From positions 76,990-140,989 of the forward strand of contig JAJVHY010000001.1 in NCBI GenBank assembly GCA_022072455.1: a DNA stretch of 64,000 nucleotides, given 5' to 3'. How positions within the stretch are numbered: position 1 is the first letter of the stretch; each line of letters opens with the position of its first letter. Shown in pieces: positions 1,360-55,974 of the stretch. This stretch comes from Verrucomicrobiia bacterium. GTDB lineage: Bacteria > Verrucomicrobiota > Verrucomicrobiia > Palsa-1439. The notes beneath the pieces were generated by a model. The model was not told where the DNA came from. It saw only the letters and a list, made by a program, of their open reading frames with translations, and did no database searches. The translations under genes were made by a program, and so were the position numbers.

Positions 1360-4300
1360 TCAAACTCTCTTGCGGCGGCGGGCTATTCCCAGCAGCACGG
1401 CCAATCCGAAACCAACAAGTCCAACCGTGGCCGGTTCGGGGATCAGAATCACGGCGATTTGGTTCCCGTTATAGTCATAATCGACCGTGTACCCCACCGG
1501 CAGGCCATTGGTCACACTGAACGTTCCAAACAAGTTGCCGTAACTCGCAATCACGTACGTCTCCCCCGTCACACCACCGACCGCCGTCAAATCCAGTGTG
1601 GCCCCCGCCAAAGTCAAGTCGCCCACGACGATCAGTTGATCGTTGCCGCCATCGCCGAACTCCGCTTGATACGTCCCGGTCAGCGTCAGATCGTTGCTGA
1701 ACACCAACGTCCCGATGCTCAACCCCGGCGTCAGATTGCCGGCGATGGTGGTGTTGCCCACCACGCTCCCAGTCCCGCGCAACGTGCCGGCAATCGTCTT
1801 CGCGCCCGCGCCGGTCACCACCCCGCTTCGCAGCGTCAACGTCCCGGCCACGTGCAATCCGCTCTGGAAATCCGCCGTCGCGGCCACGATCTCGGCCAGA
1901 CCGTTGTTGGTGAAGTTGCCCGCGATCGCCGCGACCGTGTTGCTGGCGAGGAAGGTGCCCGCGCTGCCTATCGTAATGTCAGCACCGCTGGCGTTGGCGT
2001 AGGCCGTCGGGCCGTTGACCATCACGAGGCGAACGTAGTTCGAGGGACTCCCGGCCACGGTGTCGAAGGTGTAGGTCTGGCTAACCGCGGCCGCGGTGTT
2101 GGAGGCATTGTTCAACTGGAACGTGTTGGCCCCGGCAAACCGAATTTTGCTGATCTGGTTGGCCACAGTGTTGGTCACGTTCGCAACACCTGTCGCGCGG
2201 AAACTGATCGTGCCATCGGTGATCGCGATGTCACCCGGCACTTGCGACGTAATCGTCGGCGCGGCGGTGAACTGATAGGTCGCATTGCGGTTGCTGATGG
2301 TGTTGCCCGTGGTGCCTGCGCCAATGGTCAGACCGGTGGCTTGAAGCACACCACCATCCTTGACCAGTACCGAATTGCTGTTGGCGCCGGCCAAGGCACC
2401 GACGGTTACGCCGGCGACGTACGCCGTGGCGTTGCTGACCAGCAGTTGATTGCCGGTGGCAGCGCTGCCGTTGCCGACGGTCAGGTTGCCGGCGAAGAAC
2501 TCAGCACTGTCCGCGACGGTCACACTGTTCGCCTTCCCCAGTACCCCGACGACGACGGTGCCGCCGTTGCTAAAGACCGAACCGCTGCCGGTCACGAGCA
2601 CACTGTTGTTGCTGCTGTTGACTGAACTGCTGCCCAGCCCGGTGCCGGAGGTCAGATTAATCACCTTGCCGCCATTGCTGACGAGGACGTTATCACCGAT
2701 CACGGTGCCGGTATCGCCCATCCGAATCGCATAGCCCCCCGAGTTACCGGTATTCGTCACGACCGCGCCACCGGTCACGATCAACTCGTTGTCGTAATAC
2801 ACCCCACCGCCGCCGGCCCCGAGTACGGTGTAGGACGCCGTCAACCCGGCATTGTCAGCCACAGTCACGTAGTTGCTGCTGGAAGACAGTCCCAACCACA
2901 GGGCGGTACCCGTTAACTGCGAGCCGGCACCGGTGACGAGAATTGACCCATTTGGTCCCGTGGACGAAGTGTCAAAGTAGCCGGGATAGATCGAGGTCAA
3001 GTAGACTTTCGCCTGATTGCTGATCACCAGCGAAGCGCCCGCGCTGATGGAGGCTAGCCCACCGGTCAAGGTCGAGTTGGGATCCGTGACGAGGATCGTG
3101 TTGGTGCCGGAATAGCGGAGCTGCGTCGCCACCACGTGACCACCGTCGCTGACGACCAGCGCGCCGTTGACACCACTCAGGCTGATCTGACCGGAATTGG
3201 TGAGGATGCCGCCGCCGGTGACGGTCAGGCTGTTGCTGTGCGCGGTGGCACCGTTGCCGATGACGATGGCATAAAAACCGCCCAGGTCCCACATGCCATT
3301 GGCAGTGACGAGGACGCGATTACTCGATCCGCCGTTACCGATGTAGCTGGTGCCGGCCGAGCCGCCGCTCTGGTTCTTCAGCGTGGCGTTGGTAATGGTC
3401 ATCGTATTATAGCTCGCGCCCGCAGCCGCGCCGATGGACATGGCGGCAATGCCATACTGATTGCTGGTGGTCAGGGTACTCGCCAACCCCGCGCTGCCAA
3501 GTGTGAGGCTGTTGCTGTTGGCCCCGCTGGAGTTGCCGACGATCACCGGGCTGTTCGCAAAGTACCGGCCACCGTCTTCGATGGTCACGGAGTTGTACTT
3601 GGCGCCACCAGACGAACCAATGTACAGCGAACTACCCCAGACATTCGCATTGCTCCACACCGACCCGCTGCCGGTAACGATAACCCGGTTGCTCTGGCCA
3701 CCGCTGCCCCCGACGATCATAATCCCGTCGTTCGCACCGGTCCCGCCGACAGTGACGAGGGCGCCGCTGTTGCTGATGATGATGCTGTTGCCACGGGTGC
3801 CGCCAGACCCAACGCCGAACCCATAGCCCGCCCCTGCCCCACCGCCGTGGAGGGCGTTCGACCAAACGGAGCCGGGATCGGTCACGAGCACCGTGTTGCT
3901 GCCGCCGAAGGCCCCGACCTGTGATGTCCCGCTCCGCATCAGAACCGATCCGCCGTCGGCAATGGTCATCTGGTTGCTGATGCCAGATCCATAACCAACT
4001 GTAAACGCCGTGCTGAAGGCCGCGCTGCTTTTCAGGACGGACCCGGTCCCGGTCACCGTCAACGTGTTGTTGCTGCCGGCGCCAAAACCGAGGTTAAAAG
4101 TGCCGGCACCACTATCCCGCATCGCCACCACCCCGCCATTGGTGATCAGGAGCGAGCTGTACGAACCGTTTTGCGCTCCGCCCCCCGTGCCGCCCCCAAC
4201 CGATGCCCAATAGATGTTACTCATCACGCCACCGTTGACGGTAAGCGAATTACTGATCGCGGTGAGGCCGTCGCTGCCAATGACCAGGAACGTCGCCAAA

Positions 4301-5301
4301 TCGCCGCGCAAATTCCACGTGGTGTTCGCCAGGACGGTCACCGAGTTGTTTGTCGCGCCAAACAGCGCGTTGCCATTATTGCCAATGTTAAGACCGCTGC
4401 TCCAGAGGTTGGCGTTGGTGACAACCATGGAGTTGTCACTGCCCCCACCTTTGCCGACGTTGACTGCGCCGTTGGAGACGGTGACCGCCGCGCCACTACC
4501 GCCGACGGTGTAATAGTTGTTACTGGCACCGGGCGCATTGCCGATCGTGATCGCCCCGCTTTGGAAGCTGCTGCCATCGCGAATCACCAACCCATTGCCG
4601 CGGGAGGCCCCGCTATTGCCGATCGTCACCGCCCCAATATTGGTGACGTTCGCCCCGGCCGTGATGGTTAAGCTATTCCCGGTAGCGGCCCCGGTGCCGA
4701 TGGTCAGCGCTTGATTGTTCAGTGACCAAACTCCGCCCAGACCGGGTCCGCTGAGGCTGCTGACGGTGGCATTGACGTTGGAGCTGCCATTGCCAATGGT
4801 CAATGCGCCCCCACTGAAAAGTTGACCGCCCTCGTTGAGGTAAATCGCGCCGTTGTTGCCGAGCCACGTGAACGAGGTGATGCCGGTGACCACACCGCCA
4901 TTGTCAACCTGCAACCGGCCGCCACTGCCCATCACGAAAGTGGTGTTCGTCAGGATTACGCCGGTCCCAGCCGTGTTATTCGTGACGATCAACCACGCGG
5001 CACCCAGCGCATTGGAAATGGCCAGTGTGCTGATTGTGGCTGTCAGCGACGAATCAAGAATGGTGGCAGCCGAGCCGCTAAACTGATTGGTCAGATAAGC
5101 CGCGTCAATACCAGCACTGCCGGGATAGGTGCTGACCGGTTGCCCCCAGAGAATGCCATTGGTCCAATACCCGGTCGAATCCGCGACGGTGTTTGTCCAA
5201 CTATAGGAAACCGCCTGCACTGGCAGCGCAAGAGCGAACATCGCCCCACAAATCAGCGCGAGTATCAAGCGACGTGTCCGCTGTAAATAAGTCTTCAACA
5301 T
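1360..5301 (-). CDS. Giant secreted beta-helical repeat protein with a C-terminal PEP-CTERM sorting signal (putative exosortase substrate; adhesin-like).
   Basis: The track ORF is 1360..5337. The likely start is the internal Met at 5299-5301 (MLKTYLQRTRRLILALICGAMFALALPVQA reads as a signal peptide). It has hundreds of Gly/Thr/Asn/Ser-rich beta-strand repeats. The C-terminus is ...DYDYNGNQIAVILIPEPATVGLVGFGLAVLLGIARRRKRV, i.e. PEP motif, TM helix and Arg cluster. Confidence 0.85.
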   Translation of the reverse strand: MLKTYLQRTRRLILALICGAMFALALPVQAVSYSWTNTVADSTGYWTNGILWGQPVSTYPGSAGIDAAYLTNQFSGSAATILDSSLTATISTLAISNALGAAWLIVTNNTAGTGVILTNTTFVMGSGGRLQVDNGGVVTGITSFTWLGNNGAIYLNEGGQLFSGGALTIGNGSSNVNATVSSLSGPGLGGVWSLNNQALTIGTGAATGNSLTITAGANVTNIGAVTIGNSGASRGNGLVIRDGSSFQSGAITIGNAPGASNNYYTVGGSGAAVTVSNGAVNVGKGGGSDNSMVVTNANLWSSGLNIGNNGNALFGATNNSVTVLANTTWNLRGDLATFLVIGSDGLTAISNSLTVNGGVMSNIYWASVGGGTGGGAQNGSYSSLLITNGGVVAMRDSGAGTFNLGFGAGSNNTLTVTGTGSVLKSSAAFSTAFTVGYGSGISNQMTIADGGSVLMRSGTSQVGAFGGSNTVLVTDPGSVWSNALHGGGAGAGYGFGVGSGGTRGNSIIISNSGALVTVGGTGANDGIMIVGGSGGQSNRVIVTGSGSVWSNANVWGSSLYIGSSGGAKYNSVTIEDGGRYFANSPVIVGNSSGANSNSLTLGSAGLASTLTTSNQYGIAAMSIGAAAGASYNTMTITNATLKNQSGGSAGTSYIGNGGSSNRVLVTANGMWDLGGFYAIVIGNGATAHSNSLTVTGGGILTNSGQISLSGVNGALVVSDGGHVVATQLRYSGTNTILVTDPNSTLTGGLASISAGASLVISNQAKVYLTSIYPGYFDTSSTGPNGSILVTGAGSQLTGTALWLGLSSSSNYVTVADNAGLTASYTVLGAGGGGVYYDNELIVTGGAVVTNTGNSGGYAIRMGDTGTVIGDNVLVSNGGKVINLTSGTGLGSSSVNSSNNSVLVTGSGSVFSNGGTVVVGVLGKANSVTVADSAEFFAGNLTVGNGSAATGNQLLVSNATAYVAGVTVGALAGANSNSVLVKDGGVLQATGLTIGAGTTGNTISNRNATYQFTAAPTITSQVPGDIAITDGTISFRATGVANVTNTVANQISKIRFAGANTFQLNNASNTAAAVSQTYTFDTVAGSPSNYVRLVMVNGPTAYANASGADITIGSAGTFLASNTVAAIAGNFTNNGLAEIVAATADFQSGLHVAGTLTLRSGVVTGAGAKTIAGTLRGTGSVVGNTTIAGNLTPGLSIGTLVFSNDLTLTGTYQAEFGDGGNDQLIVVGDLTLAGATLDLTAVGGVTGETYVIASYGNLFGTFSVTNGLPVGYTVDYDYNGNQIAVILIPEPATVGLVGFGLAVLLGIARRRKRV
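1435..1953. repeat. 519-bp segment that is nucleotide-identical to 5452..5970 (copy A; 3' coding end of PEP-CTERM gene 1).
   Basis: Direct line-by-line comparison of the two regions shows no mismatch (offset 4017 bp). This also explains the identical spurious plus-strand ORFs 1694..2002 and 5711..5974. Confidence 0.9.
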
Positions 5302-5373
5302 CTGTTGTGTCTCCCTCTCCTCATGACCGCACCTCAATCGGAACAGGACAATACCCCGCCCAACAACACAAGT

Positions 5374-8300
5374 CTACACCCGCATCCGCCGGAAATGACA
5401 AAATATCCCGAGCACGACAAGCCCCAGGACGACCAAAGCCAGCGCACCGGGTTCGGGGATCAGAATCACGGCGATTTGGTTCCCGTTATAGTCATAATCG
5501 ACCGTGTACCCCACCGGCAGGCCATTGGTCACACTGAACGTTCCAAACAAGTTGCCGTAACTCGCAATCACGTACGTCTCCCCCGTCACACCACCGACCG
5601 CCGTCAAATCCAGTGTGGCCCCCGCCAAAGTCAAGTCGCCCACGACGATCAGTTGATCGTTGCCGCCATCGCCGAACTCCGCTTGATACGTCCCGGTCAG
5701 CGTCAGATCGTTGCTGAACACCAACGTCCCGATGCTCAACCCCGGCGTCAGATTGCCGGCGATGGTGGTGTTGCCCACCACGCTCCCAGTCCCGCGCAAC
5801 GTGCCGGCAATCGTCTTCGCGCCCGCGCCGGTCACCACCCCGCTTCGCAGCGTCAACGTCCCGGCCACGTGCAATCCGCTCTGGAAATCCGCCGTCGCGG
5901 CCACGATCTCGGCCAGACCGTTGTTGGTGAAGTTGCCCGCGATCGCCGCGACCGTGTTGCTGGCGAGGAACTGACCACCCGCCCCAATCGTCACGCCGCC
6001 GTTCCGATATGCCGTGTGCCCGTTGACCATCTCCAACCGCGCGTAATTCGTCGCGCCCAAACCGGTATCGAATGTGTAGGACTGTCCAAACAACGTCGTG
6101 TTCGATGCCGCATTGAGCCGAAACGCATTTGCGCCGGCAAAGCTGATGTTCGAGAGTTGATTGCCACCGCCCCAGTTGGCGTAGACGTTGGCGTTGGTGA
6201 TCGCGCGGAAACTGATGACGCCATCGGTCAGCGCAATCTGGCCGGCCCCGTTGGGCGCAACGGTCGGCGCGTTGGTCGTGAACTGGAACGTGCCGGCAAG
6301 GTTGCTGATGGTGTTGCCGGTACTGCCAAAGAAATTACTCAACAAGTTGGCTTCGAGCAGACCGCCCGACACCAACAATGAGTTCCCCACCGCGCCGGCG
6401 CTGCCGACGACAACGTTGCTGCCATAATACGCGGCCCCGGCATTCACGAGAAGTTGGTTATCGGTCGCACCGTTCGCGCCAACGGTCGTCACGCGCACAT
6501 TCGTAACAACCACGCCGGAACCGAGGGTGAACAGATTGGATTGCGCCAAACCGTTGCCGACCGCGATATTACCGGCGCGGAGATTCCAGAGGACTGCGCC
6601 TTGCGCCGCGACAGCGTTGTTCGACGAACCACTGCCGACCTGCAAGCCCCCGGTCGCCAGCAACGCATTGGATGCCGTCAGCGAATTCTGGCTGCCGCCT
6701 AACGCGCCGATGGTCAACAGCGCGACGTTGGAGAACACGCTGACGGTCTCGCCGCCGATCACTTGCAAACTGTTGTTACTCGCGCTCCGCCCCGTGCCCA
6801 CCGTCACGGCACCAATGCCAATATAGGCGCCGCCGTTGGCGATCGTCAGCCGATTGCCGATGGTGTTGGTCATCCCAATGATGAATGTGCCGGTATTGGT
6901 CACCACCGAGCCGGCATCGGTCACGGTAACCGAGTTGTACCGGTTCACCGGGCCGGTACTGGTGCCGGTATTGGTGTAGCCATTACCAGCGAGGATGCCG
7001 CCGGTCTGCCACAAGCCGCCATTGGTGACGATGACTTGCATGTAGTTGTTGTTCGAGAACGCCGGGTTGCCGGATTCGCCGCCCAGGAACGCCATGCCGG
7101 TATTGATCCAGCGCGAACCGGGATCGGTCACGGTGATGGTGTTGCTGTTGACGCCGTAGAGCGGATTGGCGCCGGCCCGGCGGCCCATGTACGTATCAGT
7201 GCTGAAGACAGCGCCGCCATTTTCAATCAGTAACTTGCTTCGGGCACTGGCCCCGTTTACGCCCAAGCCGAGTTGCAGACTGCGGTCGCCGGTCACCCGC
7301 AGCACCGAATCGGTGCCGGTCACAATCGTGAACGCGCCGTCGCCCCGATCGCCGATCAGATAACCGCCATTGACGACCGAGCCGGCGAACAACACGCCGC
7401 CGTTACTGACAATCACCCCGCTGCCGCCATCAATTCCAAACTGGAAGTACCACTGCGTATTTGCAAAGTAATTCGACCAGACCGAGCCGGCCCCACTCAC
7501 GAGCGCAGTGACCGTGTTGGCAGCCGTGCTGCCCAGCATGACGGCCTTCGCGACGAGTTGACCGCTGTTGAGCACGTCGAGCCGTGCGCCGTTGCCGGTA
7601 AGATTGAGGTTGCTGGCGTTGGTGAAGACTGAACCGGGGCCGTCCACGAGAATTCTGCCATTGGCACCGACCGAAGCATTGCCGGTGGTGCTGTTAAAAA
7701 GTTTCGCGCCGTTGCTGACGACAATCGAGCCTCCCGCGCCGATGGCGAATGAACTTAAGCTGCTGGCAGTGGTCGCCACCAGGTTGGAACCGCCGAGCAT
7801 CACCCACTGGCCGCCGACGGTGAACGACCGATTCGACGCCACCAGAATCTGCGCCGCCAACGCCGTTGGCGCGTTGCTGGTGATCAACGTGCCGGCGTTG
7901 AAGTTGAAATGCGAGTTAGTGACCCCACCCGCGACGTTGTTGGTCACCAGCAGTTGATCCACTGCCAGCGTGCTGCCGGCATTCAGCGTCAACGTCCCCA
8001 ACCCGGTCGCCCCCACCACCAACCGCGCCGTGGTGGCCGCGTTGGTCACGGTTAATGCGGCCCCGCTGTCCAACTGCAACGCACCCACACCGCCGATCCA
8101 CACGTCGTCGGACGCCGTATTCACAAACGCGCCATTGCCCACCACGAGGGTGCCGTTGAGGCTCGTCACCCCGGCCTGTGTGTTCGTCAATCCATTCCGC
8201 ACCACGACCAGCCCGCCGGCAAACGCCAACTGCGCGCCGATATCGAGTGTGACCCCCTCGTTAAAGACCAGTGCCGCGCCCGGCCCGGCTCGGAACAAGC

Positions 8301-9420
8301 CCGCCCCCGAGACCGGCCCCGCCAACACCAACCGCGCCGCATTCGTCGCCAGCATCAACCCGTCGTTGACGATCCCGGTCGCCGCCACGACGAACACCCC
8401 GGTATTCGTCGCGACCACCGTCCCGTCATTCCGAAACGCGCCGGCCGTGACCTGATTGGTCCCGACCGCGCTCGTGCTCTCCCCGACCAACTGCCCGGCA
8501 TTGATCACATCTCCGGCCGTCGTCAACCAGTTCCGCAACCCGCCGCTGCTGCTCGTGTTCACCAGATAAATCGTGCCGGCGCTATTATTCGTGACCGCCG
8601 CCCCCGCGCCGCTGCCGGTCACACTCAAAATGTTCGTCACCCCCACTGCCGTCGTCGCATTGGAGATCGTGACCAGGCCGGCATTGACCAACTGGTTGGA
8701 AAAAACAGCGACGCGCGTATTGTTCGCGACGCCCCCGGCCACAAACGTGTGGATGGTCCCGGTATTGTAGAACGCATTCAAGCCACCGGCACCCGTGCCC
8801 ACCTGCACCACCAACCCGGTATCCCCCGCCGCTCCGGCATTGCTCAACAAAAACCGGATCGTCCCGGCATTGGTGACTTGCCGGCTGCTCGACCCGCTCG
8901 CCAACAGCAACCGCGCAAACCCACTCGCCGCGCCGTTGGTGATGTACGTCTCCGCCCCGTTGACGAATTCCCCCGCCACGTTCAACGTGCTCACCCCGGT
9001 GCCGCTGTTGAAACTCAGCGCCGCGTTGTCCACCATCGTCAGCGCGCCGTTCGAAAACGTGCCCACCGATCCCTGTGTGCCGATTCCAAACTGCACCACC
9101 GAATTGCTCCCCAACCAAGTCGCCCCCGTCACCCGGTACACATTGTTACTCAACAACAACGTGTGCTTCACGTTACCGGCAACACTGTTGGAAATGACGA
9201 GCGTGGCGTTCGTCGTCGTCAGCATGTTGTTGGTGATGATGATGAACGCAGAAATCGCGTTGGTGATGAACACATCATCCGCCGCCGTCGGCACCGAGCC
9301 CAATGACCAAGCCGTCGCGGTATTGCTGTAAAGCCGACTGACCGTACCCGTCCAAGAATTATTGCCAAGAACCGCCGGTGTGAACAGAACCGCCGCCACA
9401 AGTCCAAGAAGATAACGCAT
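5374..9420 (-). CDS. Giant secreted beta-helical repeat protein with a C-terminal PEP-CTERM sorting signal. Tandem paralog of 1360..5301.
   Basis: N-terminal signal peptide MRYLLGLVAAVLFTPAVLG. Same repeat architecture as the upstream paralog. The C-terminus ...IPEPGALALVVLGLVVLGIFCHFRRMRV is a PEP-CTERM. The last ~330 aa are near-identical to the paralog. Confidence 0.85.
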   Translation of the reverse strand: MRYLLGLVAAVLFTPAVLGNNSWTGTVSRLYSNTATAWSLGSVPTAADDVFITNAISAFIIITNNMLTTTNATLVISNSVAGNVKHTLLLSNNVYRVTGATWLGSNSVVQFGIGTQGSVGTFSNGALTMVDNAALSFNSGTGVSTLNVAGEFVNGAETYITNGAASGFARLLLASGSSSRQVTNAGTIRFLLSNAGAAGDTGLVVQVGTGAGGLNAFYNTGTIHTFVAGGVANNTRVAVFSNQLVNAGLVTISNATTAVGVTNILSVTGSGAGAAVTNNSAGTIYLVNTSSSGGLRNWLTTAGDVINAGQLVGESTSAVGTNQVTAGAFRNDGTVVATNTGVFVVAATGIVNDGLMLATNAARLVLAGPVSGAGLFRAGPGAALVFNEGVTLDIGAQLAFAGGLVVVRNGLTNTQAGVTSLNGTLVVGNGAFVNTASDDVWIGGVGALQLDSGAALTVTNAATTARLVVGATGLGTLTLNAGSTLAVDQLLVTNNVAGGVTNSHFNFNAGTLITSNAPTALAAQILVASNRSFTVGGQWVMLGGSNLVATTASSLSSFAIGAGGSIVVSNGAKLFNSTTGNASVGANGRILVDGPGSVFTNASNLNLTGNGARLDVLNSGQLVAKAVMLGSTAANTVTALVSGAGSVWSNYFANTQWYFQFGIDGGSGVIVSNGGVLFAGSVVNGGYLIGDRGDGAFTIVTGTDSVLRVTGDRSLQLGLGVNGASARSKLLIENGGAVFSTDTYMGRRAGANPLYGVNSNTITVTDPGSRWINTGMAFLGGESGNPAFSNNNYMQVIVTNGGLWQTGGILAGNGYTNTGTSTGPVNRYNSVTVTDAGSVVTNTGTFIIGMTNTIGNRLTIANGGAYIGIGAVTVGTGRSASNNSLQVIGGETVSVFSNVALLTIGALGGSQNSLTASNALLATGGLQVGSGSSNNAVAAQGAVLWNLRAGNIAVGNGLAQSNLFTLGSGVVVTNVRVTTVGANGATDNQLLVNAGAAYYGSNVVVGSAGAVGNSLLVSGGLLEANLLSNFFGSTGNTISNLAGTFQFTTNAPTVAPNGAGQIALTDGVISFRAITNANVYANWGGGNQLSNISFAGANAFRLNAASNTTLFGQSYTFDTGLGATNYARLEMVNGHTAYRNGGVTIGAGGQFLASNTVAAIAGNFTNNGLAEIVAATADFQSGLHVAGTLTLRSGVVTGAGAKTIAGTLRGTGSVVGNTTIAGNLTPGLSIGTLVFSNDLTLTGTYQAEFGDGGNDQLIVVGDLTLAGATLDLTAVGGVTGETYVIASYGNLFGTFSVTNGLPVGYTVDYDYNGNQIAVILIPEPGALALVVLGLVVLGIFCHFRRMRV
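5452..5970. repeat. 519-bp segment that is nucleotide-identical to 1435..1953 (copy B; 3' coding end of PEP-CTERM gene 2).
   Basis: Same comparison as copy A. The copies diverge immediately outside these coordinates (ccggttcgggg vs ccgggttcgggg on the left; gaaggtgcc vs gaactgacc on the right). Confidence 0.9.
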
Positions 9421-9762
9421 TTTACGAGAAAAAAGCCCCTTTCATATACCTCGTCTCACACAATGATAAAATATCTACGTCGCGCACCCGGGCATGTCAA
9501 GCCAAACGGGCCACGTCCGAAGATCAACCAGAACGGTTCCCCTCCAAAGTGGAACTGTGTTTCAAGTACGAACGCGAGAATAGCTTCTAAACACTGGAAG
9601 AGATTCTCGCCGATGCTTTCGGCGTAGACATTGCGGAGGATTTTCCGTGCCTCATTTCCTGAAGTGTTATTTTGGCGATGTCGCTGGTTGGGACTACCCG
9701 CCGGGGGGTTCAAAGGCCGGCTAGATTCATCGAAATCTCCGACGACATCAAAATGTGAGCGG
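9421..9762 (-). promoter_or_regulatory. Long (~340 bp), comparatively AT-richer leader/promoter region upstream of PEP-CTERM gene 2.
   Basis: Intergenic region between the rhomboid-like stop (TAA at 9763-9765, reverse strand) and the gene-2 ATG (9418-9420). No convincing ORF; the small ORF 9456..9713 (-) was rejected. Confidence 0.3.
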
Positions 9763-10469
9763 TTAAGGCGCTAAGCGCGTTGTGGTAGGCCACCGGAAAA
9801 TCAAGGCCAATCCGACTCCGGCAATCACCCCGCCGGCATGAGCGACGTTGTCAATTCGCGGTTCCAACCCGCCGATCACCAAGTCCGCCAGCACGATCAG
9901 ACCCAACACCCGCAACAAGTGCCGGCGCGCCGCAGCCAAGATCGCTCCGCGCAACCGGTACACCGTCACCCCAAACGCGCCGACCAGTCCAAATACCCCG
10001 CCACTCGCGCCACCGCCAACCGCGCCTGCATCGCCGCGCCGAGTGTGCCCCAGGATTCGACGCCCTCGTAAAACGCAATCGCCGCCGGCCACTGTTGCGT
10101 CCCGGTCAACGACCACAACCGCCACAAACGGATCTCACCACGCAACGCCCCCGGCACCTCCGCCGTGTCGGGCGGCTCCGCGGCGCCGCACCGCGCCACG
10201 CGACGCCACCGTTGCGCCGCCGGTAACCGTCCGGCTTTTGCACACCGCACCGCTTGCCGGTTGGCGAGCCGGGGCAACACGATCAGGACCAGAAACAAAC
10301 CCCACGCCCACGCCGCAGCACCGGTAAACAACGCCGCCACTGCCGCCACGAACACGACGAGATGCCGGAGAATCGGCACGACCAACCAGCGCGACGCTTC
10401 GCGCAGCAGCAGCAGTGCCGGCAACGCCGTCAGGATCACCAACGGATAGACCCAAAGCCGGTCGGTCAC
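9763..10469 (-). pseudogene. Rhomboid-family intramembrane serine protease, apparently split by a frameshift (real or a sequencing artefact).
   Basis: ORF 9763..10125 (-) carries the catalytic GxSG motif (GGGASGGVFGLVGAFG) and the His motif (NVAHAGGVIAGVGLALIF) about 51 residues apart, i.e. TM4-TM6 of a rhomboid. The overlapping ORF 9966..10469 (-) in another frame encodes hydrophobic helices of TM1-TM2 type. Their combined length (~235 aa) equals a normal rhomboid core. Only 2 bp separate its start from the upstream L,D-transpeptidase stop. Confidence 0.4.
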
Positions 10470-12263: not shown

Positions 12264-13154
12264 ATGTATCGGCTGACTTTTCAGTCCCGCGACGCAACCC
12301 GCGCCCCGTTCACCGGCGACGCGGCCCCCGTCACCATTGGCCGCGCGGCCGGCTGCACCCTCCAACTCACCGCGGCCGGCCTCCACGACCACCACGCGAC
12401 CCTCGACCGCCGGGCCGACGGCTATTACCTCCGCGACCTTGTTGGCAGTCGCACCGTCCGCGTCAACGATCAGGCGATCAACGACCACCGGCTCAGCAGC
12501 GGTGACGAGATCGAGATCGGCGCTGTCCGCATGCACTTTCACATCATCCACGACACCCCCGGCAGCCGCCGCGCGTTCGACATCTGGCAAGCCGTGGCCG
12601 GCGCTGCCGTGCTCCTCCTGGTGCTCGGTCAAATCGGGTTCTTGGGCTGGATCTTCGCGCAACCGCATCCGCGCAACATGAAACTCGACATCGTCAAAGG
12701 CAAACAAGCCAAAGCCCTGAACGCCGCCCCGGTCGTCCCGCCGCCCACTGAGCCGGTCCCGCTTGCACCACTCGTCCCGCTCACCCCCGCTCCCGCCGTT
12801 GCCGCCCCACCGCCTGTCTTGAACCGGCAACTCAAAATCACCCGCGTTGACCGCGTGGAAGGCCGCGCCGACGTCACGTGGCGCATCCAAATCAAAGCCC
12901 AAGTCCGCGACCGGCAGCTCGATTCATCCGCCGTCCAGATCATCGTCCACTGCTACTCCGCGGGAAACCAGTTGATCGCCACACAGGAAGCGCCGCGCCC
13001 AGCCGCGTGGGAAAATTTCTCCAGCAAACAAATCCCGGTCCGCGTCAACCTCGCCCCAGCCCGCTGCGCCGGCTGCGTGGTGCGCACGTACTACCGGCAA
13101 CAATTACAGGACATCTGGGCGTCGGCGCCAGCACTGGCGACACCCGCCCCGTAA
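12264..13154 (+). CDS. FHA-domain protein with a central TM segment and a Pro/Ala-rich linker.
   Basis: N-terminal FHA signature (VTIGRAAGCTLQL...HATLDRRADGYYLRDLVGSRTVRVNDQAI...LSSGDEIEIGAVRMHF), then a TM helix (AVAGAAVLLLVLGQIGFLGWIF) and a PPPTEPVPLAPLVP linker. Confidence 0.75.
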   Translation: MYRLTFQSRDATRAPFTGDAAPVTIGRAAGCTLQLTAAGLHDHHATLDRRADGYYLRDLVGSRTVRVNDQAINDHRLSSGDEIEIGAVRMHFHIIHDTPGSRRAFDIWQAVAGAAVLLLVLGQIGFLGWIFAQPHPRNMKLDIVKGKQAKALNAAPVVPPPTEPVPLAPLVPLTPAPAVAAPPPVLNRQLKITRVDRVEGRADVTWRIQIKAQVRDRQLDSSAVQIIVHCYSAGNQLIATQEAPRPAAWENFSSKQIPVRVNLAPARCAGCVVRTYYRQQLQDIWASAPALATPAP

Positions 13155-13161
13155 CAATCTT

Positions 13162-14604
13162 ATGGCCGAAAACCTCGTTGGTCGGACTCTGGGTGCCTAT
13201 CAGATCGAAGCCGAAATCGGCGTCAGCCGGTGGGGCGGTGTTTACCGGGCCACCCAAAGCTCGATGAACCGCACCGTCGCCCTCAAGACCGTCTCCGCCG
13301 AAATGGCCGCTGTCTCGGGCCGCACCACGCATTTCCTCGAAGAAATGCAGGCCGCCGCCCAGATCTCCCACAGCAACATCGTCACCATCTACGAAGCCGG
13401 CTGCATCGACGGCATCAACTTCTGCGCGATGGAATACATCAACGGCCCCGCCCTCGCCGATTTCCTCCGCAACGGCAAAGTTGTCGACGAACAACACCTC
13501 CTCCAAACCATACACAGCGTCGCCCGCGCCCTCGATTTCCTCTGGCAAAAGAAAATCCCCCACCAACCCCTCGAAGCCAAAAATATCCTCGTGGACGCCC
13601 GCGGCACTGTCAAACTCATCAACGTCCTCCCCCTCGACAACATGCCGGTCGAATCCATGAAAGACGATATGCTCACCGTCGGCCTCGTCCTCGCCAACCT
13701 CGCCAACAGCATCAGCCCCGTCACCAAACGCACTGGCGAACTCGTCGAACGCATGGTCGCCGCCGCCGGCCGCAAACCCTTCATCTCCCTGGCCGATCTC
13801 GCCCAAACCGCCGCCGACCTCGAACGCGAACTCTTCCCGCCGCCGTCCGCGGCCGGAGCCGCCACCCCCGCGCCCGAGAAAAAGATCAACAAAGTCGGCC
13901 TCGTCCTCGCCATCCTCGTCGGCATCGCTTCGGCCAGCGGATTGTATTGGTGGCGCACCGCCGCCCTCCGCCAACCCCCACCGGTCACCCGGCCCGCCGA
14001 CTTCGGCACCATGGCCCGCGTTCCCGGCGGCACCGTCGGCAAAAAGAACGTCAAAGACTTCTTCCTCGACCGCTACCCGGTCACCATCGGCGACTACAAA
14101 ATATTCCTCGACGCCGTCACCGCCGGCGTCACCCTCAAGGAACACACCTTTGCCCCCCGCAAAAAAAATCACACTCCCGACAACTGGGACAAAATCCTCG
14201 CGGGCATCCAACAGGGCCGCCCCTTGGATGTCGGCAATCGCCAGCTCTGGCTCACGTGGGATTCCCCGGTCATCGGCGTGGATTGGTACGACGCCTACGC
14301 CTACGCCAACTGGCGCGGCAAGCGGTTGCCCAGTGACGAAGAATGGGACCGCGCCACCCGGCAATCCACTCAGACACCCGCGCCGGCCCCCACCAATCAA
14401 ACCGAAGTCTACGCCAACCCGGCCGATAAAAGTCCGGACGGCATCAGCGGACTCACCGGCAAACTCAGCCAATGGATCGGCACCTCCCCGACCCATTCCA
14501 CCGCCATCATCCGCGGCGGCAGACAATCCCGCACCGAAATCAACCGCGAAACCCGGTCCGACACCGTCGGATTCCGTTGCGCGGCGGACAAAGAAGTCAA
14601 GTAA
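13162..14604 (+). CDS. Ser/Thr protein-kinase-like domain (degenerate; predicted pseudokinase), TM helix, and C-terminal FGE-sulfatase (formylglycine-generating-enzyme-like) domain.
   Basis: Kinase subdomains are recognisable (G-rich loop IGVSRWGGVY, VALK, HSNIVTIYEAG) but the catalytic loop reads HQPLEAKNILVD instead of HRDxxxxN, and no DFG is found. TM helix VGLVLAILVGIASASGLYWW. The C-terminal FGE domain has ...GVDWYDAYAYANWRGKRLPSDEEWDRA...GFRCA. Confidence 0.75.
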   Translation: MAENLVGRTLGAYQIEAEIGVSRWGGVYRATQSSMNRTVALKTVSAEMAAVSGRTTHFLEEMQAAAQISHSNIVTIYEAGCIDGINFCAMEYINGPALADFLRNGKVVDEQHLLQTIHSVARALDFLWQKKIPHQPLEAKNILVDARGTVKLINVLPLDNMPVESMKDDMLTVGLVLANLANSISPVTKRTGELVERMVAAAGRKPFISLADLAQTAADLERELFPPPSAAGAATPAPEKKINKVGLVLAILVGIASASGLYWWRTAALRQPPPVTRPADFGTMARVPGGTVGKKNVKDFFLDRYPVTIGDYKIFLDAVTAGVTLKEHTFAPRKKNHTPDNWDKILAGIQQGRPLDVGNRQLWLTWDSPVIGVDWYDAYAYANWRGKRLPSDEEWDRATRQSTQTPAPAPTNQTEVYANPADKSPDGISGLTGKLSQWIGTSPTHSTAIIRGGRQSRTEINRETRSDTVGFRCAADKEVK

Positions 14605-51466: not shown

Positions 51467-52260
51467 ATAACCAAATCACAGTCACCGACGCCCAACGCCA
51501 GCAATACGCTGCCGATGGCTACTTCATCACCGATGTCGTGTTCGACGAAGCAACGCTCGCCGGCATCCGGCAGGAGTTCAAACGCATGTGGGCCGAAGAA
51601 ATCGAAAAAGCGAAACAGTCCGGCGAGAAACTCGCACTCGACTGGGCGATGTACCGGCCGCACATGGCGCAGCTTGATCATCGCAGCCCGACCTGCCACG
51701 CGTTTTGTCATCACCCAGTCTTCGCCGACCTCTGTCGCCAAACCATCGGCCCCGATGCCGACCTCGTCTGGAATCAAGCCATTGTCAAAGCCGCGATGCC
51801 GAAGCAACGCAATGCCGATACTTGGGACAACGTCTTTGGCTGGCACCAGGATATTTGGTACGCGCTCAACAACGTCAAAGGCGCAAAAGAAATCTACAAC
51901 ATGGACGTACTCCGCGAACCGAATAACGCCATCACCTGCTGGTGCGCCATCAGTCGCACGACCGTGGACAACGGCACGCTTTGGGTCGTGCCAGGCGCGC
52001 ACAAGAACGGCCTCATTCACCACAACATGCACGAAGCCCGAAAGGAATGGCAGGCGCAATTGGATACAGCGTACCGCATCCCGGTCGTCCTCCGCCCCGG
52101 TCAGGTGCTCGTCTTCAACAAATACCTCCCGCACTGCAGCGGCACGAACAACTCCGACGAAACGCGCATGGCCTACCAAATCGGCTACACCGCGCCGGGC
52201 CTCTACCTCAAACCATCCGCCGACAACGCCCCATTGATGCGGGCTGGAAAATTGTCATGA
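51463..52260 (+). CDS. Phytanoyl-CoA dioxygenase (PhyH)-family oxygenase, second copy.
   Basis: Internal Met at 51463 (ATGA overlap). FGWHQDIWYAL..., CWCAISRTTVDNGTLWVVPGAH. Confidence 0.7.
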   Translation: MNNQITVTDAQRQQYAADGYFITDVVFDEATLAGIRQEFKRMWAEEIEKAKQSGEKLALDWAMYRPHMAQLDHRSPTCHAFCHHPVFADLCRQTIGPDADLVWNQAIVKAAMPKQRNADTWDNVFGWHQDIWYALNNVKGAKEIYNMDVLREPNNAITCWCAISRTTVDNGTLWVVPGAHKNGLIHHNMHEARKEWQAQLDTAYRIPVVLRPGQVLVFNKYLPHCSGTNNSDETRMAYQIGYTAPGLYLKPSADNAPLMRAGKLS

Positions 52261-53513
52261 GCGCCCTCCTCTGCGGCGCCGCCGAAGCCGACTTCACCCC
52301 CGCTCCCGGCCTGCAACTGCTCGGGCAGATGCACCAACGCATTGCGAAATACAAACGCGATCCGCTCACCGCCAACGCCATCGCCTTCCGGCAAGGCCGC
52401 GAGACCGTGGTGCTGGTGTCTGTCGACATCTGCATGCTCAATGACGCGTTCGTCCGCCGGGTCCAAAAACGTTTCCCGCACCGGCTGTTATTACACAGCA
52501 CACACACGCACGTCGCGCCCACCGTGTTTGATTTACTGACGGCCCAGGCCGATCCGCATTTCGTCCGGGCCGTCGAAGCCGCGATCCTCGCTTCCGCCAA
52601 ACACGCCATCAAGAATTTGAAACCCGCCGAACTCTTCAGCGGCACCGGCCAGATGGACCAAATGGGCTGGAACCGCCGCGCCATGTTTCGCGATGGCACA
52701 AGCCGGATGTACAGCAATTCCACGCAACGTGGTTTCATCGGCCTCGAAGGCCCGCGCGACCCGGCCCTGCCGGTCTTGTACATCCCCGGTCAGGCCGTCC
52801 TCGTCAATTTTGCCACTCATCCGAATTGCCTCGAAGGCGATTCCTTCTACAGCGCCGACTTGCCGGGGGAAGTCCGCCGGCAACTCAAAGCTGCGCTGGG
52901 TGAAAAGGTCGTGGTCGTCTATCTCACCGGCGCTGCCGGCAACACCGCCCCGAGTATTCTCGATCCGTTCGAGCCGAAACAACCATGGCGCGGTGAAGCC
53001 GGTGTCAGACGTTCCGGCCAATACCTTGCCGGCGAAGCCTTGACAGTCATCGCCAGCGCGGTGCAGCCGATGAAATCGCCGCGATTACGCGTTGTCCAAA
53101 CACAACTGCCGATCCCGGTTCGTCCCTGGCCAAAGGCCGGCTCGATTACCGATCCATTCCCGCGCCTCGCCAAATGGAAGCCGGCCCGAAAATATTACGA
53201 AGATTCCCAAGCCAATTGGCCGCCCCCCGCCGCGCCGGTAATGCTGAATGTCATCCGCATCGGCGATACGGTGATCTGCACGAACCCAGCCGAGCTGTTT
53301 GTCGAGTTCGGTTTGGAAATCCGCCGCAACTCCCCGGCGCGCGTCACATTCATCAGCGAACTCACCGACGGCTACTGCGGCTACGTCTGCACCAAGAAAG
53401 CGTATTCGCGCGGCGGGTATGAAACATGGCCGGCCCCGACGAGCAAGCTCGCGCACTCGGCCGGGCCGCAGTTCGTCGCAGCAACGCGCAAGTTGTTGAA
53501 GCGCGCTTTTTAG
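52257..53513 (+). CDS. Neutral/alkaline ceramidase-like family protein (paralog 3 of 3).
   Basis: Internal Met at 52257 (ATGA overlap; the track ORF start 51942 overlaps the upstream gene). Blocks collinear with 27254/28618 (LLGQMHQRI..., LLHSTHTHVAP, SELTDGYCGYVCTKKAYSRGGYE). Confidence 0.5.
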   Translation: MSALLCGAAEADFTPAPGLQLLGQMHQRIAKYKRDPLTANAIAFRQGRETVVLVSVDICMLNDAFVRRVQKRFPHRLLLHSTHTHVAPTVFDLLTAQADPHFVRAVEAAILASAKHAIKNLKPAELFSGTGQMDQMGWNRRAMFRDGTSRMYSNSTQRGFIGLEGPRDPALPVLYIPGQAVLVNFATHPNCLEGDSFYSADLPGEVRRQLKAALGEKVVVVYLTGAAGNTAPSILDPFEPKQPWRGEAGVRRSGQYLAGEALTVIASAVQPMKSPRLRVVQTQLPIPVRPWPKAGSITDPFPRLAKWKPARKYYEDSQANWPPPAAPVMLNVIRIGDTVICTNPAELFVEFGLEIRRNSPARVTFISELTDGYCGYVCTKKAYSRGGYETWPAPTSKLAHSAGPQFVAATRKLLKRAF

Positions 53514-54229
53514 TCGGACAGCGTTTCGGAGTTCTGCCGGTTGTAGACCTGATAGTATTTATCGAACCATTCGCGCGGGGTCTTTGGATCAGACGGCAAA
53601 TCGGACAAAGGACTGCGCCGGGCGATCAGCGCGGTAAGGAGGCCGCTACTAAAGTAACCGCTGTAATGACTGCGAAGCGAGATCCCCTGATTGTCCACTG
53701 CGATTATTTTAGCAGTGATGTTCTGAGGCAGCGCGCCGGCCACTCTGGCCCATTCCGGGAGATCAATGAGGAAAACAATTGCAGCAACATCGGCGTGTCG
53801 ATTCAGAATCTGTTTCAGGGCCGCACTGGAGCAGCCCGACACCATCGGTTCGTCGGGATCAAACTCGACTACCTCAGAGCCAGCAATCGTGACTCCTTTC
53901 TGCTGCTTCAATTCGGCCTGGAAGGCTTCCCACCGGTAATCCCGTGGCACGTCCACGCCCACCGGATCGTGATCTGTAACGATGATGAGCCGGCCTTGAT
54001 GATGAACGGCATCGAGTGTTTCCCTGGCCAACGCTTCGCCGATGCCCGCAGCCGCGCCGATGATGGGAGCGCGGTCGATCTTGTGTGTGGCCGGCTGGAG
54101 TCGCCGCCAAATGGAAGCCAGCGCGATCACAAGTACCAGAGTGGCGACGACGACTAGAATTTTCCGTTGCACGAGGTCAGTTGGGGTATGACGCACCGGG
54201 GTATTGGTTGTCATACCATTGAGTTTCAC
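53510..54229 (-). CDS. Hypothetical membrane-anchored protein, last gene of the PEP-CTERM/pseudopilin operon.
   Basis: 239-aa ORF with an N-terminal TM helix (ILVVVATLVLVIALASIW). The true start is probably downstream of 54229 to avoid overlap with the DUF1559 gene. Confidence 0.4.
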   Translation of the reverse strand: MKLNGMTTNTPVRHTPTDLVQRKILVVVATLVLVIALASIWRRLQPATHKIDRAPIIGAAAGIGEALARETLDAVHHQGRLIIVTDHDPVGVDVPRDYRWEAFQAELKQQKGVTIAGSEVVEFDPDEPMVSGCSSAALKQILNRHADVAAIVFLIDLPEWARVAGALPQNITAKIIAVDNQGISLRSHYSGYFSSGLLTALIARRSPLSDLPSDPKTPREWFDKYYQVYNRQNSETLSD

Positions 54230-55283
54230 CGCCGTTAGAGGACACGTTCAAAACTCCCTTGCCATCGGTCCAGAACAGACCACCGGGCGTGCCGTTGGGC
54301 CCGGTTCTATGCATATCCTTGCTGTACTGCAGTAACGTCGTTTTGGTGACGCGATCAACGTGGCCATCCACAAAGAGCACGTTCATGCCCAGATTGTGCC
54401 AAGCCGCGACAAAGGCATTGCAGTCGTTTCGCAACCAAATTCGTGGGTCAGGGTTGACGCCGGTCCAAGCGATGTTCCACGCATTCGTCACCTGCAAAGG
54501 AGTCAGTCCGGTGGCTCCTCCATAGGGAAGCGTGTACCCCCACGCGCCGCCGTTCGCCTGCCCCCATGGGTTCGCCAAGCCAAATGACGAACCATCGAGG
54601 GGAATTTCGCCGAGCAGCATTGCCGAGCTGCCGTAATTGAGGTCGCTCATGTTGACACGCCGCGACCAATTCTGGGGACTGGTGGGACCCGCACCACAAC
54701 TACTGGCGCCGCCGCAGCGCCAGGTCAGCGGGAAAAGATCGAGGTTCATCTGATAGTTGCTCGCCGAGAGCCGGTAACCGCCGCCAGGATAGCGCCAGGC
54801 GTTCGCCGGGCATTGGAGCAGCTTCGAGTAGGATGCATAGGTCGAGGTGACGCTCGAAGGACAACACCCGCCAATGCCACACGTATTGCATGCAATCCGC
54901 TTTTGCAGCACGCTCAACGGGCAACCCAAATACGGTGCAATCACGTAGTTCCAGCCGCCGGCGTTCTTGGTTGGGTCGGAGCTGGTGACGCAATACGCCG
55001 TGCCTTGATAGGTGGGACAGTACGATTCGCCGTTAGCGCCGGGCGCGTTGGTGCAAGCGCATTCGGGGTTAGCATAGGGATAGGCGCCATTATTGTCGTT
55101 CAAGTATCCCGAGAAACCCACGCCGAGTTGGCGTTCGTTATTGGCGCACTGTGCGTCTTTGCTGCGCGCCTTGGCTGTGGCGAGCGCCGGCATGAGCAGG
55201 GCCGCCAAAACGGCGATAAGAGTGACCACCACCAACAGTTCCACAAGCGTAAAGCCCCTTTGGAACAACGGTCGCTTTTTCAT
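54177..55283 (-). CDS. Prepilin-type N-terminal cleavage/methylation-domain protein with DUF1559 (H-X9-DG) C-terminal region.
   Basis: Internal Met at 55283: MKKRPLFQRGFTLVELLVVVTLIAVLAALLMPALA (class III signal with the G-F-T-L-V-E motif). Cys-rich middle. C-terminal NVLFVDGHVDRV. Confidence 0.8.
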   Translation of the reverse strand: MKKRPLFQRGFTLVELLVVVTLIAVLAALLMPALATAKARSKDAQCANNERQLGVGFSGYLNDNNGAYPYANPECACTNAPGANGESYCPTYQGTAYCVTSSDPTKNAGGWNYVIAPYLGCPLSVLQKRIACNTCGIGGCCPSSVTSTYASYSKLLQCPANAWRYPGGGYRLSASNYQMNLDLFPLTWRCGGASSCGAGPTSPQNWSRRVNMSDLNYGSSAMLLGEIPLDGSSFGLANPWGQANGGAWGYTLPYGGATGLTPLQVTNAWNIAWTGVNPDPRIWLRNDCNAFVAAWHNLGMNVLFVDGHVDRVTKTTLLQYSKDMHRTGPNGTPGGLFWTDGKGVLNVSSNGGETQWYDNQYPGASYPN

Positions 55284-55284
55284 G

Positions 55285-55974
55285 TCACCGTCCGAAATTC
55301 GCAATGTCGTCCACCGCGCTGAGCCGGTTGGTCCACATCGGATTATACCACGGGTAAATATTGTAGCCGCACACCCCGGTCAAAATGAAAACGCCCCCCG
55401 GAATATATGTGAAATGATCTGGGCCAAACGACCACAAGTCGAAGCTGGCGACGTTCACTTGTCCACCGCGCACAGAGCCAACGTTCTGAGCGTTAGTACT
55501 CAGGCATGGATTCATGTTGGTGAAGGCCGTGCTGGGTGAGTTGTAATAAATGAATGGCGTCCCCCAAGCATCGCAAATGTTGATCGGGGCGACACCGGTA
55601 ATGCCCGTCAACGCGTCGGAAATGCCGGATAGATTTTTCTGCAACTGGTTGGGAGGAAATTTCAGATAGGCTTTTTGACCGCCGACACTGGACAGCGAGG
55701 TGTAGAGCAGCCAATTGTTGGTGGCCTGCCAAAATCCATTCGCTGAAAGCCGAATCGGAGTGGTGACGGGATAATAACCCCAGTCGCTCTTATAACTATC
55801 CAGCGCGGCTTCGATGGCACCGATCTGACTCTGAGTCGCCGTGATCGCCATCCGTTTCTGCGCATAACTGGAGATGCCAATGGTAACTGCGGCCAAGAGC
55901 AAAACGATGAGAATCACCGTCATCAATTCGATCAGTGTGAACCCCCGCCGGCAAAAGTCGCGCCGGCTGGTCAT
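55285..55974 (-). CDS. Type II secretion/type IV pilus-like pseudopilin (GspG-like).
   Basis: Internal Met at 55972-55974 overlaps the giant-gene stop (ATGA). MTSRRDFCRRGFTLIELMTVILIVLLLAAVTIGISSYAQKRMAITATQSQIGAIEAALDSYKSDWGYYP is the prepilin leader plus the conserved Glu at position 5 of the mature pseudopilin. Confidence 0.7.
   Translation of the reverse strand: MTSRRDFCRRGFTLIELMTVILIVLLLAAVTIGISSYAQKRMAITATQSQIGAIEAALDSYKSDWGYYPVTTPIRLSANGFWQATNNWLLYTSLSSVGGQKAYLKFPPNQLQKNLSGISDALTGITGVAPINICDAWGTPFIYYNSPSTAFTNMNPCLSTNAQNVGSVRGGQVNVASFDLWSFGPDHFTYIPGGVFILTGVCGYNIYPWYNPMWTNRLSAVDDIANFGR

Follow-up and report, generated by a model that had tools for sequence, protein, structure and literature searches.

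An identical 521-bp tract in two tandem PEP-CTERM genes of a Verrucomicrobiae bacterium points to recent gene conversion within a mosaic multigene family

Genes A and B (Table 1) are adjacent on the reverse (-) strand of a 64-kb stretch of DNA from a Verrucomicrobiae bacterium (contig JAJVHY010000001.1; the whole stretch is called the window, and positions are counted from its first letter), which was recovered as a metagenome-assembled genome (MAG). Both open reading frames (ORF) were intact, and each encodes a giant protein of the PEP-CTERM type. The two genes shared a maximal exact direct repeat of 521 bp, in which 1433-1953 was identical to 5450-5970 at an offset of 4017 in the letters of the MAG assembly. 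This tract very probably arose by recent homologous gene conversion within a recombining PEP-CTERM multigene family, probably from A into B.

The tract (hereafter also the cassette) encoded residues 1117-1290 of A and 1151-1324 of B, that is, 174 identical amino acids (aa) from FLASNT to IPEP. Its first base was codon position 1 of the Phe in the FLASNT motif, and its last base was codon position 2 of the final Pro in PEP, a codon that is CCG in A and CCC in B. All complete codons inside the tract were identical (173/173; 521/521 nt), whereas in the ~190 codons aligned immediately upstream a common codon was used for 64 (58%) of the 111 conserved residues, and third-position identity, at ~0.5, looked saturated. 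Nucleotide identity of the flanks was about 0.5-0.69 (12/21 nt at the edge before the tract, ~50% after it), and same-register identity fell at once to 0.2-0.45 beyond the repeat. With ~69% identity in the flanks, the chance of an identical run of 521 nt was P ~1e-84. Both junctions were exactly homologous, in frame, inside conserved motifs and free of indels, duplication scars and foreign sequence. A search for further copies, proposed in an earlier note on this DNA, gave no third copy of the tract within the 64-kb window (BLAST of the window against itself), and the only other exact repeat of 30 nt or longer was one 34-mer.

The earlier note had given the identity as 519 bp (1435..1953 and 5452..5970); zero mismatches were confirmed, but the maximal run was 521 bp. 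It had placed the identical codons before the PEP motif and the differences in the tails. The transmembrane (TM) and Arg tails after PEP did differ (11/24 residues identical), but the tract took in the PEP tripeptide. The genes differed, as stated there, over most of their length (~25% identity in the first ~1000 residues, by protein alignment), but homology reached ~150 codons upstream of the tract, with 50-55% aa identity. Recent gene conversion or recombination, its proposed cause, agreed with an identical patch lying between old, diverged, in-frame flanks. The homogenised part, which it had called the sorting/anchor domain, comprised the folded C-terminal beta-helix unit plus PEP, but not the TM/Arg anchor, whose two tails have diverged.

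Identity at non-synonymous and synonymous sites alike is a hallmark of conversion (PMC6053082). Between A and B, an internal identical tract with identical synonymous sites was bordered on both sides by diverged homologous flanks, and adjacent segments were incongruent among family members (protein level, same-MAG paralogs). Synonymous identity inside the tract, together with saturation outside it, rules out selection alone and also a recent duplication of the whole genes. A domain kept identical by extreme purifying selection, and not by recombination, would suit a module that no other part of the family matches in conservation, but all synonymous sites were identical in 173 codons of a domain whose protein identity was only 51-86% in every other paralog. 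Purifying selection alone is refuted by the synonymous sites, and its probability is next to nil.

The ~310-aa C-terminal module that contains the tract was defined from a 13-member alignment (mean column identity 69%) and had two parts. Sub-module 1 followed the pattern GGLLEAN...GNTISN...YQFT...ITDGTISFRA...FAGANTF.LN...YTF...NY...VNG.TAY...TIG, and sub-module 2 the pattern FLASNT...GTLVFSN...GY.vDY.Y...QIA.V.IPEP. Some metagenome relatives had only sub-module 1 or only sub-module 2, so the two parts are separable. A HMMER search of an exhaustive protein library of representatives with the last 259 residues of A matched 1,563 representatives at E<=1e-3, of which 25 reached E<=1e-30; A and B were among the matches, and cluster look-ups traced them to the GenBank records of Table 1, on a 167-kb contig. 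Eight further matches were encoded on other contigs of the same MAG (_00650, _00971, _00973, _02077, _02432, _03553, _03947 and _04116), of which _02077 matched the cassette half only and not the full module. A word-indexed protein search with the cassette gave two distant matches only, and a cassette scan of the genome contig collection gave no match. Exact-sequence look-ups of the proteins A, B and P0007 in an index of encoding contigs also gave no match. The scan of metagenome contigs with the family alignment gave relatives with 41-65% identity and no informative tandem pairs.

Mosaicism within the MAG was followed with segment identity matrices and sliding profiles at the protein level. 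Over a stretch of 119 residues in sub-module 1, A matched _00973 at 91%; in the cassette, the identity of these two was only ~69% over the first half but 86% over the second. For _00971 (P0010) and _00650 (P0013), from different contigs, identity rose from 37% in sub-module 1 to 89% over the cassette's second half and 95% in the TM tail; their last 118 residues, from about GTLVFSN on, were 90% identical. This pattern looks like an exchange between unlinked loci, with the switch apparently near the invariant GTLVFSN. A block of 151 residues was common to _00971 and _04116 at 91%, and P0011 and P0015, from the same metagenome, were 87-95% identical in the middle of the cassette only. These rank reversals among segments are not explicable by differences in site rates, and they imply repeated exchange with different breakpoints. 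As judged from sequence, the family is a mosaic, with breakpoints often near the most conserved motifs. The variation or shuffling that the earlier note had thought compatible with the identity thus gained support in the family, in which at least 10 same-MAG paralogs share all or part of the module as mosaics with incongruent segments.

The conserved motifs formed identity islands of 17-28 nt even among diverged members. When the DNA of A was compared with that of two diverged relatives, the longest exact run (17-18 nt) was FLASNT, which is therefore a plausible junction site. In a related metagenome organism, a tandem pair of family members (contig L039) had different signal peptides, and the next 432 nt were 92% identical up to the contig end (5172-5603 vs 7713-8144); the window is thus not the only place where neighbours have been partly homogenised or partly duplicated.

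A single illegitimate or microhomology-mediated domain replacement, or a segmental duplication-insertion, with no family-wide process, would agree with the little present-day identity of the two flanks, and its edges would match the domain boundary and PEP, as they do, if selection spares only domain-precise swaps. Against such a one-off event, the junctions were homologous and in frame within conserved motifs and had no scar, many other exchanges in the family had different breakpoints, and the identity islands persist between diverged members. A one-off replacement is improbable.

Programmed variation, by cassettes of the pilE/pilS or vlsE kind, a site-specific shufflon or a diversity-generating retroelement, might be thought of for a multigene, surface-type family with mosaic members. 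However, A and B were complete genes with starts and signal peptides and not silent cassettes, the region exchanged was the conserved and not a variable one, and window scans gave no recombinase, reverse transcriptase or inverted repeats in or near the A/B locus. Programmed cassette variation was rejected on these three grounds, and is highly improbable.

An assembly or polishing artefact would have made similar cassettes identical through multi-mapping short reads or graph simplification, or would have resolved the inter-repeat loop wrongly. The DNA comes from a MAG, and contigs of relatives break inside family genes, which are thus hard to assemble. Polishing, however, erases differences only between near-identical sequences, and here the flanks were 60-69% identical and the edges sharp to the nucleotide; even with polishing, the likeness of the cassettes would far exceed that of the remaining gene sequence, so that conversion would still be implied. 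Only one Eulerian path runs through the de Bruijn topology X-Bbody-R-(Btail+spacer+Abody)-R-Atail-Y, both ORF were intact and in frame, and other paralog pairs in the window were not homogenised. Most MAG contigs with family members were 138-566 kb long (one was 27 kb), which suggests good assembly. An artefact is accordingly quite improbable as the cause of the identity, though polishing may have erased a few true differences.

Contig breaks coincided with family genes in relatives, which would agree with the hotspot for assembly collapse suggested in the earlier note. The JGI metagenome 3300050184 held five close family members. Contig L038 (1-6813, 6.8 kb) had three consecutive genes, the first and last being truncated at its ends, and the module was present in both of the genes examined, the first two; the two complete modules were 76% identical and had no long identical run. 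This layout suggests breakage of short-read assemblies at the conserved modules.

The neighbours of each gene bear on the direction of the exchange. The nearest relative of the A/B cassette was that of P0007 (86% in its second half), and P0007 and P0011 are the sub-module 1 neighbours of A. The cassettes of P0014 and P0015, the sub-module 1 neighbours of B, were just 56-69% identical to the A/B cassette. Because the A-side neighbours include the nearest cassette, A is the more likely home of the cassette and B its recipient; on these comparisons the direction from A to B is somewhat favoured over the reverse.

Under gene conversion, A and B would be old tandem paralogs from a large family in Verrucomicrobiae, and the envelope proteins that they encode would be beta-helical, exported by the Sec route and sorted through PEP-CTERM. 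Sub-module 2, being the best conserved part of the family, retains nucleotide identity islands (FLASNT, GTLVFSN), in which ordinary homologous recombination, of RecA type as we infer, would start and resolve. In a very recent non-reciprocal exchange, all 521 bp of sub-module 2 would have been copied into the neighbour gene, with no change to the variable bodies, the membrane-anchor tails or sub-module 1. Exchanges of the same sort at other breakpoints, also between unlinked loci, would have built the family mosaic. As the exchanged part is the conserved unit, the conversion event reduces rather than creates diversity. The repeat copies flank a 3496-bp segment that includes the 72-bp spacer, and a direct repeat of 521 bp at a distance of 4 kb is predicted to mediate occasional deletion (of 4,017 bp, giving a B-body/A-tail fusion with A lost) or amplification.

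Several points weigh against gene conversion. The exact identity has the MAG's own record as its single source, the mosaicism of the same-MAG paralogs was seen at the protein level only, and the closest syntenic relative (L015) was without the A/B pair. If the cassette of B before the event was at 69-86% aa identity, like those of other paralogs, RecA-dependent exchange would have been inefficient.

The description of A and B as two adjacent PEP-CTERM genes of ~1300 aa with PEP-TM-Arg ends was correct. The start of A, taken at first as TTG 5337, where the mechanical ORF begins, was instead the ATG at 5301, preceded by GGAGAGGGAG, as in the GenBank record of A. Both proteins had a signal-peptide-like N-terminus (MLKTYLQRTRRLILALICGAMFALALPVQA and MRYLLGLVAAVLFTPAVLG, judged by eye), a G/N/T/S-rich body of beta-helix type, the C-terminal module and a PEP-CTERM tail, with the ends IPEP-ATVGLVGFGLAVLLGIA-RRRKRV in A and IPEP-GALALVVLGLVVLGIFCHF-RRMRV in B. 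Their composition was 0.1% Cys, 9-10% N, 11% T and 8-11% S, compared with 3.5% N, 5.9% T and 3.9% S in other proteins of the window.

The TIGR02595 model (cutoff 16 bits) matched A at 23.6 bits with the full protein and 27.5 bits with the tail alone; B had no match at E<0.01 with the full protein and 19.3 bits with the tail alone. PF07589 (cutoff 20.7) scored 20.3 with full-length A and 24.4 with its 339-aa fragment, and at E<=1 it matched 12 of 13 family members, some of them below the curated cutoff. The NCBIfam model TIGR04393, a 'T5SS/PEP-CTERM-associated repeat' of the body (cutoff 23 bits), scored 23.7 in B and 21.6, just below cutoff, in A. By tail hidden Markov model, PEP-TM-basic end and composition, A and B fit the published definition of PEP-CTERM sorting-signal proteins. 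Surface localisation and processing by an exosortase would follow the same assignment; no exosortase was found among the window ORF scanned. Scans for sigma-70 promoters, terminators and sigma-54 motifs gave nothing above chance, including in the 72-bp spacer. By eye, a sigma-70-like TTGACA-17 nt-TAGATA was seen at 9472-9500 (-), ~50 nt upstream of the ATG of B; the consensus scan did not list it.

Pfam at E<=1 gave no domain in the module apart from the PEP-CTERM motif, and a sequence search of the PDB with the family profile gave no significant match. AlphaFold2, run on the family alignment, gave a mean predicted local distance difference test (pLDDT) of 81.9 and a predicted template modelling score (pTM) of 0.79. 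Residues 141-310, nearly equal to the conversion tract (143-316 in the same numbering), had pLDDT 88-97, and sub-module 1 had 54-82; a helix was modelled in the TM region (316-338). Modelled sub-module 2 was a right-handed beta-helix unit, which superposed on the autochaperone region of IcsA and on the C-terminal fragment of the IcsA passenger. There was also a weak match to the autotransporter EprS. In type V secretion, the autochaperone region is a C-terminal cap that nucleates folding of the passenger. An autochaperone-like role of sub-module 2 may be proposed from this predicted fold, and the label of adhesin for A and B would likewise come from the fold. No Autotransporter-barrel Pfam match was found in A or B, and the PEP-CTERM motif follows the beta-helix directly; having no beta-barrel, A and B are not autotransporters. 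The module is a widespread conserved domain without a Pfam model, and it merits a family definition.

A broader reading would join these observations. The ~310-aa module would be a junction domain that couples autochaperone-like folding to exosortase processing, its domain-precise homogenisation would reflect selection for an identical interface of co-expressed neighbours to a shared sorting/anchoring partner, and motif-anchored recombination would act as modular shuffling of bodies and anchors over >1,500 representative clusters. Taken as a whole, this reading is speculative and unlikely.

A scan with the neighbouring IOR-like gene gave as kin Verrucomicrobiia MAGs of peat, lakes and soil, the closest with 93% identity. 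The closest relative, L015, keeps the rhomboid-YkuD-PCD-FHA-kinase-M23-IOR synteny. In place of B and A it had a putative tRNA gene, called from the translation, and a candidate integrase-like ORF, and the pair thus stands at a synteny break. No A/B orthologs were found through the IOR-gene scan of genome contigs or in L015, and ARAGORN found no tRNA within the window. The rhomboid-like gene beside B, 9763-10469 (-), appears internally deleted or frameshifted. What is left of it is an N-terminal ORF of 167 aa (9966-10469) and, in a different frame, one of 120 aa (9763-10125), in which the GASGG and AHAGG motifs persist; the L015 counterpart was a single ORF of 410 aa (2501-3733).

Table 1. Positions in the window of genes A and B and of their parts
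Feature	Position	Strand	Description
Gene A	1360..5301	-	1313 aa; GenBank MCG3146640.1, PCFJNLEI_00074; exact match P0003
Gene B	5374..9420	-	1348 aa; GenBank MCG3146641.1, PCFJNLEI_00075; exact match P0004
A tail after PEP	1360..1432	-	ATVGLVGFGLAVLLGIARRRKRV + stop; TM helix and basic cluster; diverged from B tail
Copy 1 of the 521-bp tract	1433..1953	-	A codons 1117-1289 + 2 nt; probable donor
Sub-module 1 of A	1954..2376	-	57% aa identical to that of B; 86-91% to paralog _00973
Spacer between B stop and A start	5302..5373	-	72 bp
B tail after PEP	5374..5449	-	GALALVVLGLVVLGIFCHFRRMRV + stop
Copy 2 of the 521-bp tract	5450..5970	-	B codons 1151-1323 + 2 nt; probable recipient
Sub-module 1 of B	5971..6393	-	nearest relatives P0014 and P0015, 67-68%

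Elsewhere in the window, three paralog pairs (27254-28621/28618-29982, 37928-39721/39598-41475 and 33933-35102/42971-44089), two of them tandem, were ~70% identical in nucleotides and had no long identical tracts. One gene of the first pair had a weak ceramidase-like match, and another ceramidase-like ORF was at 51942-53513. The genes around the three pairs were of glycoside hydrolase, sulfatase and esterase types. A Ser/Thr protein kinase fused to an FGE-sulfatase-like domain, 13162-14604 (+), lay beside an FHA-domain protein (12264-13154), an arrangement kept in related Verrucomicrobiia MAGs. A PATR-repeat giant of 2529 aa, without the C-terminal module, was at 55971-63560 (-), followed by prepilin-type N-methyl (T2SS-G/DUF1559-like) genes at 55285-56040 (-) and 54177-55304 (-). 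The order of a PATR giant and then N_methyl genes was also found after family member P0009 (metagenome contig L037, 14161-22961).

The A/B pair is a clean, datable case of Verrucomicrobiae PEP-CTERM surface families evolving by intragenomic recombination of conserved end-modules. The conversion is an ordinary evolutionary mechanism, unusually clean and domain-precise, in an under-studied family. The predicted fold, which resembles the terminal part of autotransporter passengers, hints at how the exosortase pathway might handle beta-helical passengers. At exact repeats of this kind MAG assemblies break or polishing may go wrong, and deletion or amplification variants are expected there in populations.

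Such recombination is known for the adhesins of pathogens; the PEP-CTERM setting is new and the mechanism is not. The literature searched held no paper joining 'PEP-CTERM' with 'gene conversion'. PEP-CTERM proteins are defined by a PEP motif, a TM helix and a cluster of basic residues at the extreme C-terminus, a signal peptide, low Cys, few basic residues and high Thr, Ser and Asn, and they occur as many paralogs per genome, with lineage-specific expansion especially in Verrucomicrobia (PMC1569441). A and B share with the PEP-CTERM/exosortase (EpsH, Xrt) proteins the signal, the N-terminus, the composition and the abundance of paralogs. That literature covers the 24-residue signal, whereas A and B add the ~310-aa conserved module ahead of it. 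The right-handed beta-helix of type Va autotransporter passengers (IcsA, pertactin, Ag43, Ssp, TibA) is common to the C-terminal unit of A and B, but those proteins carry a C-terminal 12-stranded beta-barrel translocator, and A and B, without one, end in PEP-CTERM.

With tufA/tufB, amoCAB and psbA, whole genes of core function are homogenised, whereas in A and B it was one domain of highly diverged genes. The pilE/pilS, vlsE and msp2 systems move silent partial donor cassettes into the variable region of one expression site; A and B, in contrast, are complete and exchanged their conserved region. The closest described analogue, as far as the likeness goes, is the bab/Hop adhesins of H. pylori. 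The babA/babB/babC genes (Hop family) have near-identical termini and a divergent middle, intragenomic recombination or conversion makes chimeras of them, and the 3' exchanges fall in the homologous C-terminal region (PMC4552749); for concerted evolution that paper cites Pride & Blaser 2002. The bab genes differ from A and B in having a C-terminal beta-barrel anchor, dispersed loci and phase-variable CT repeats. A and B are tandem genes of an environmental Verrucomicrobiae MAG, in which no phase-variation repeats were seen, with a PEP-CTERM anchor and conversion of the beta-helix end-domain.

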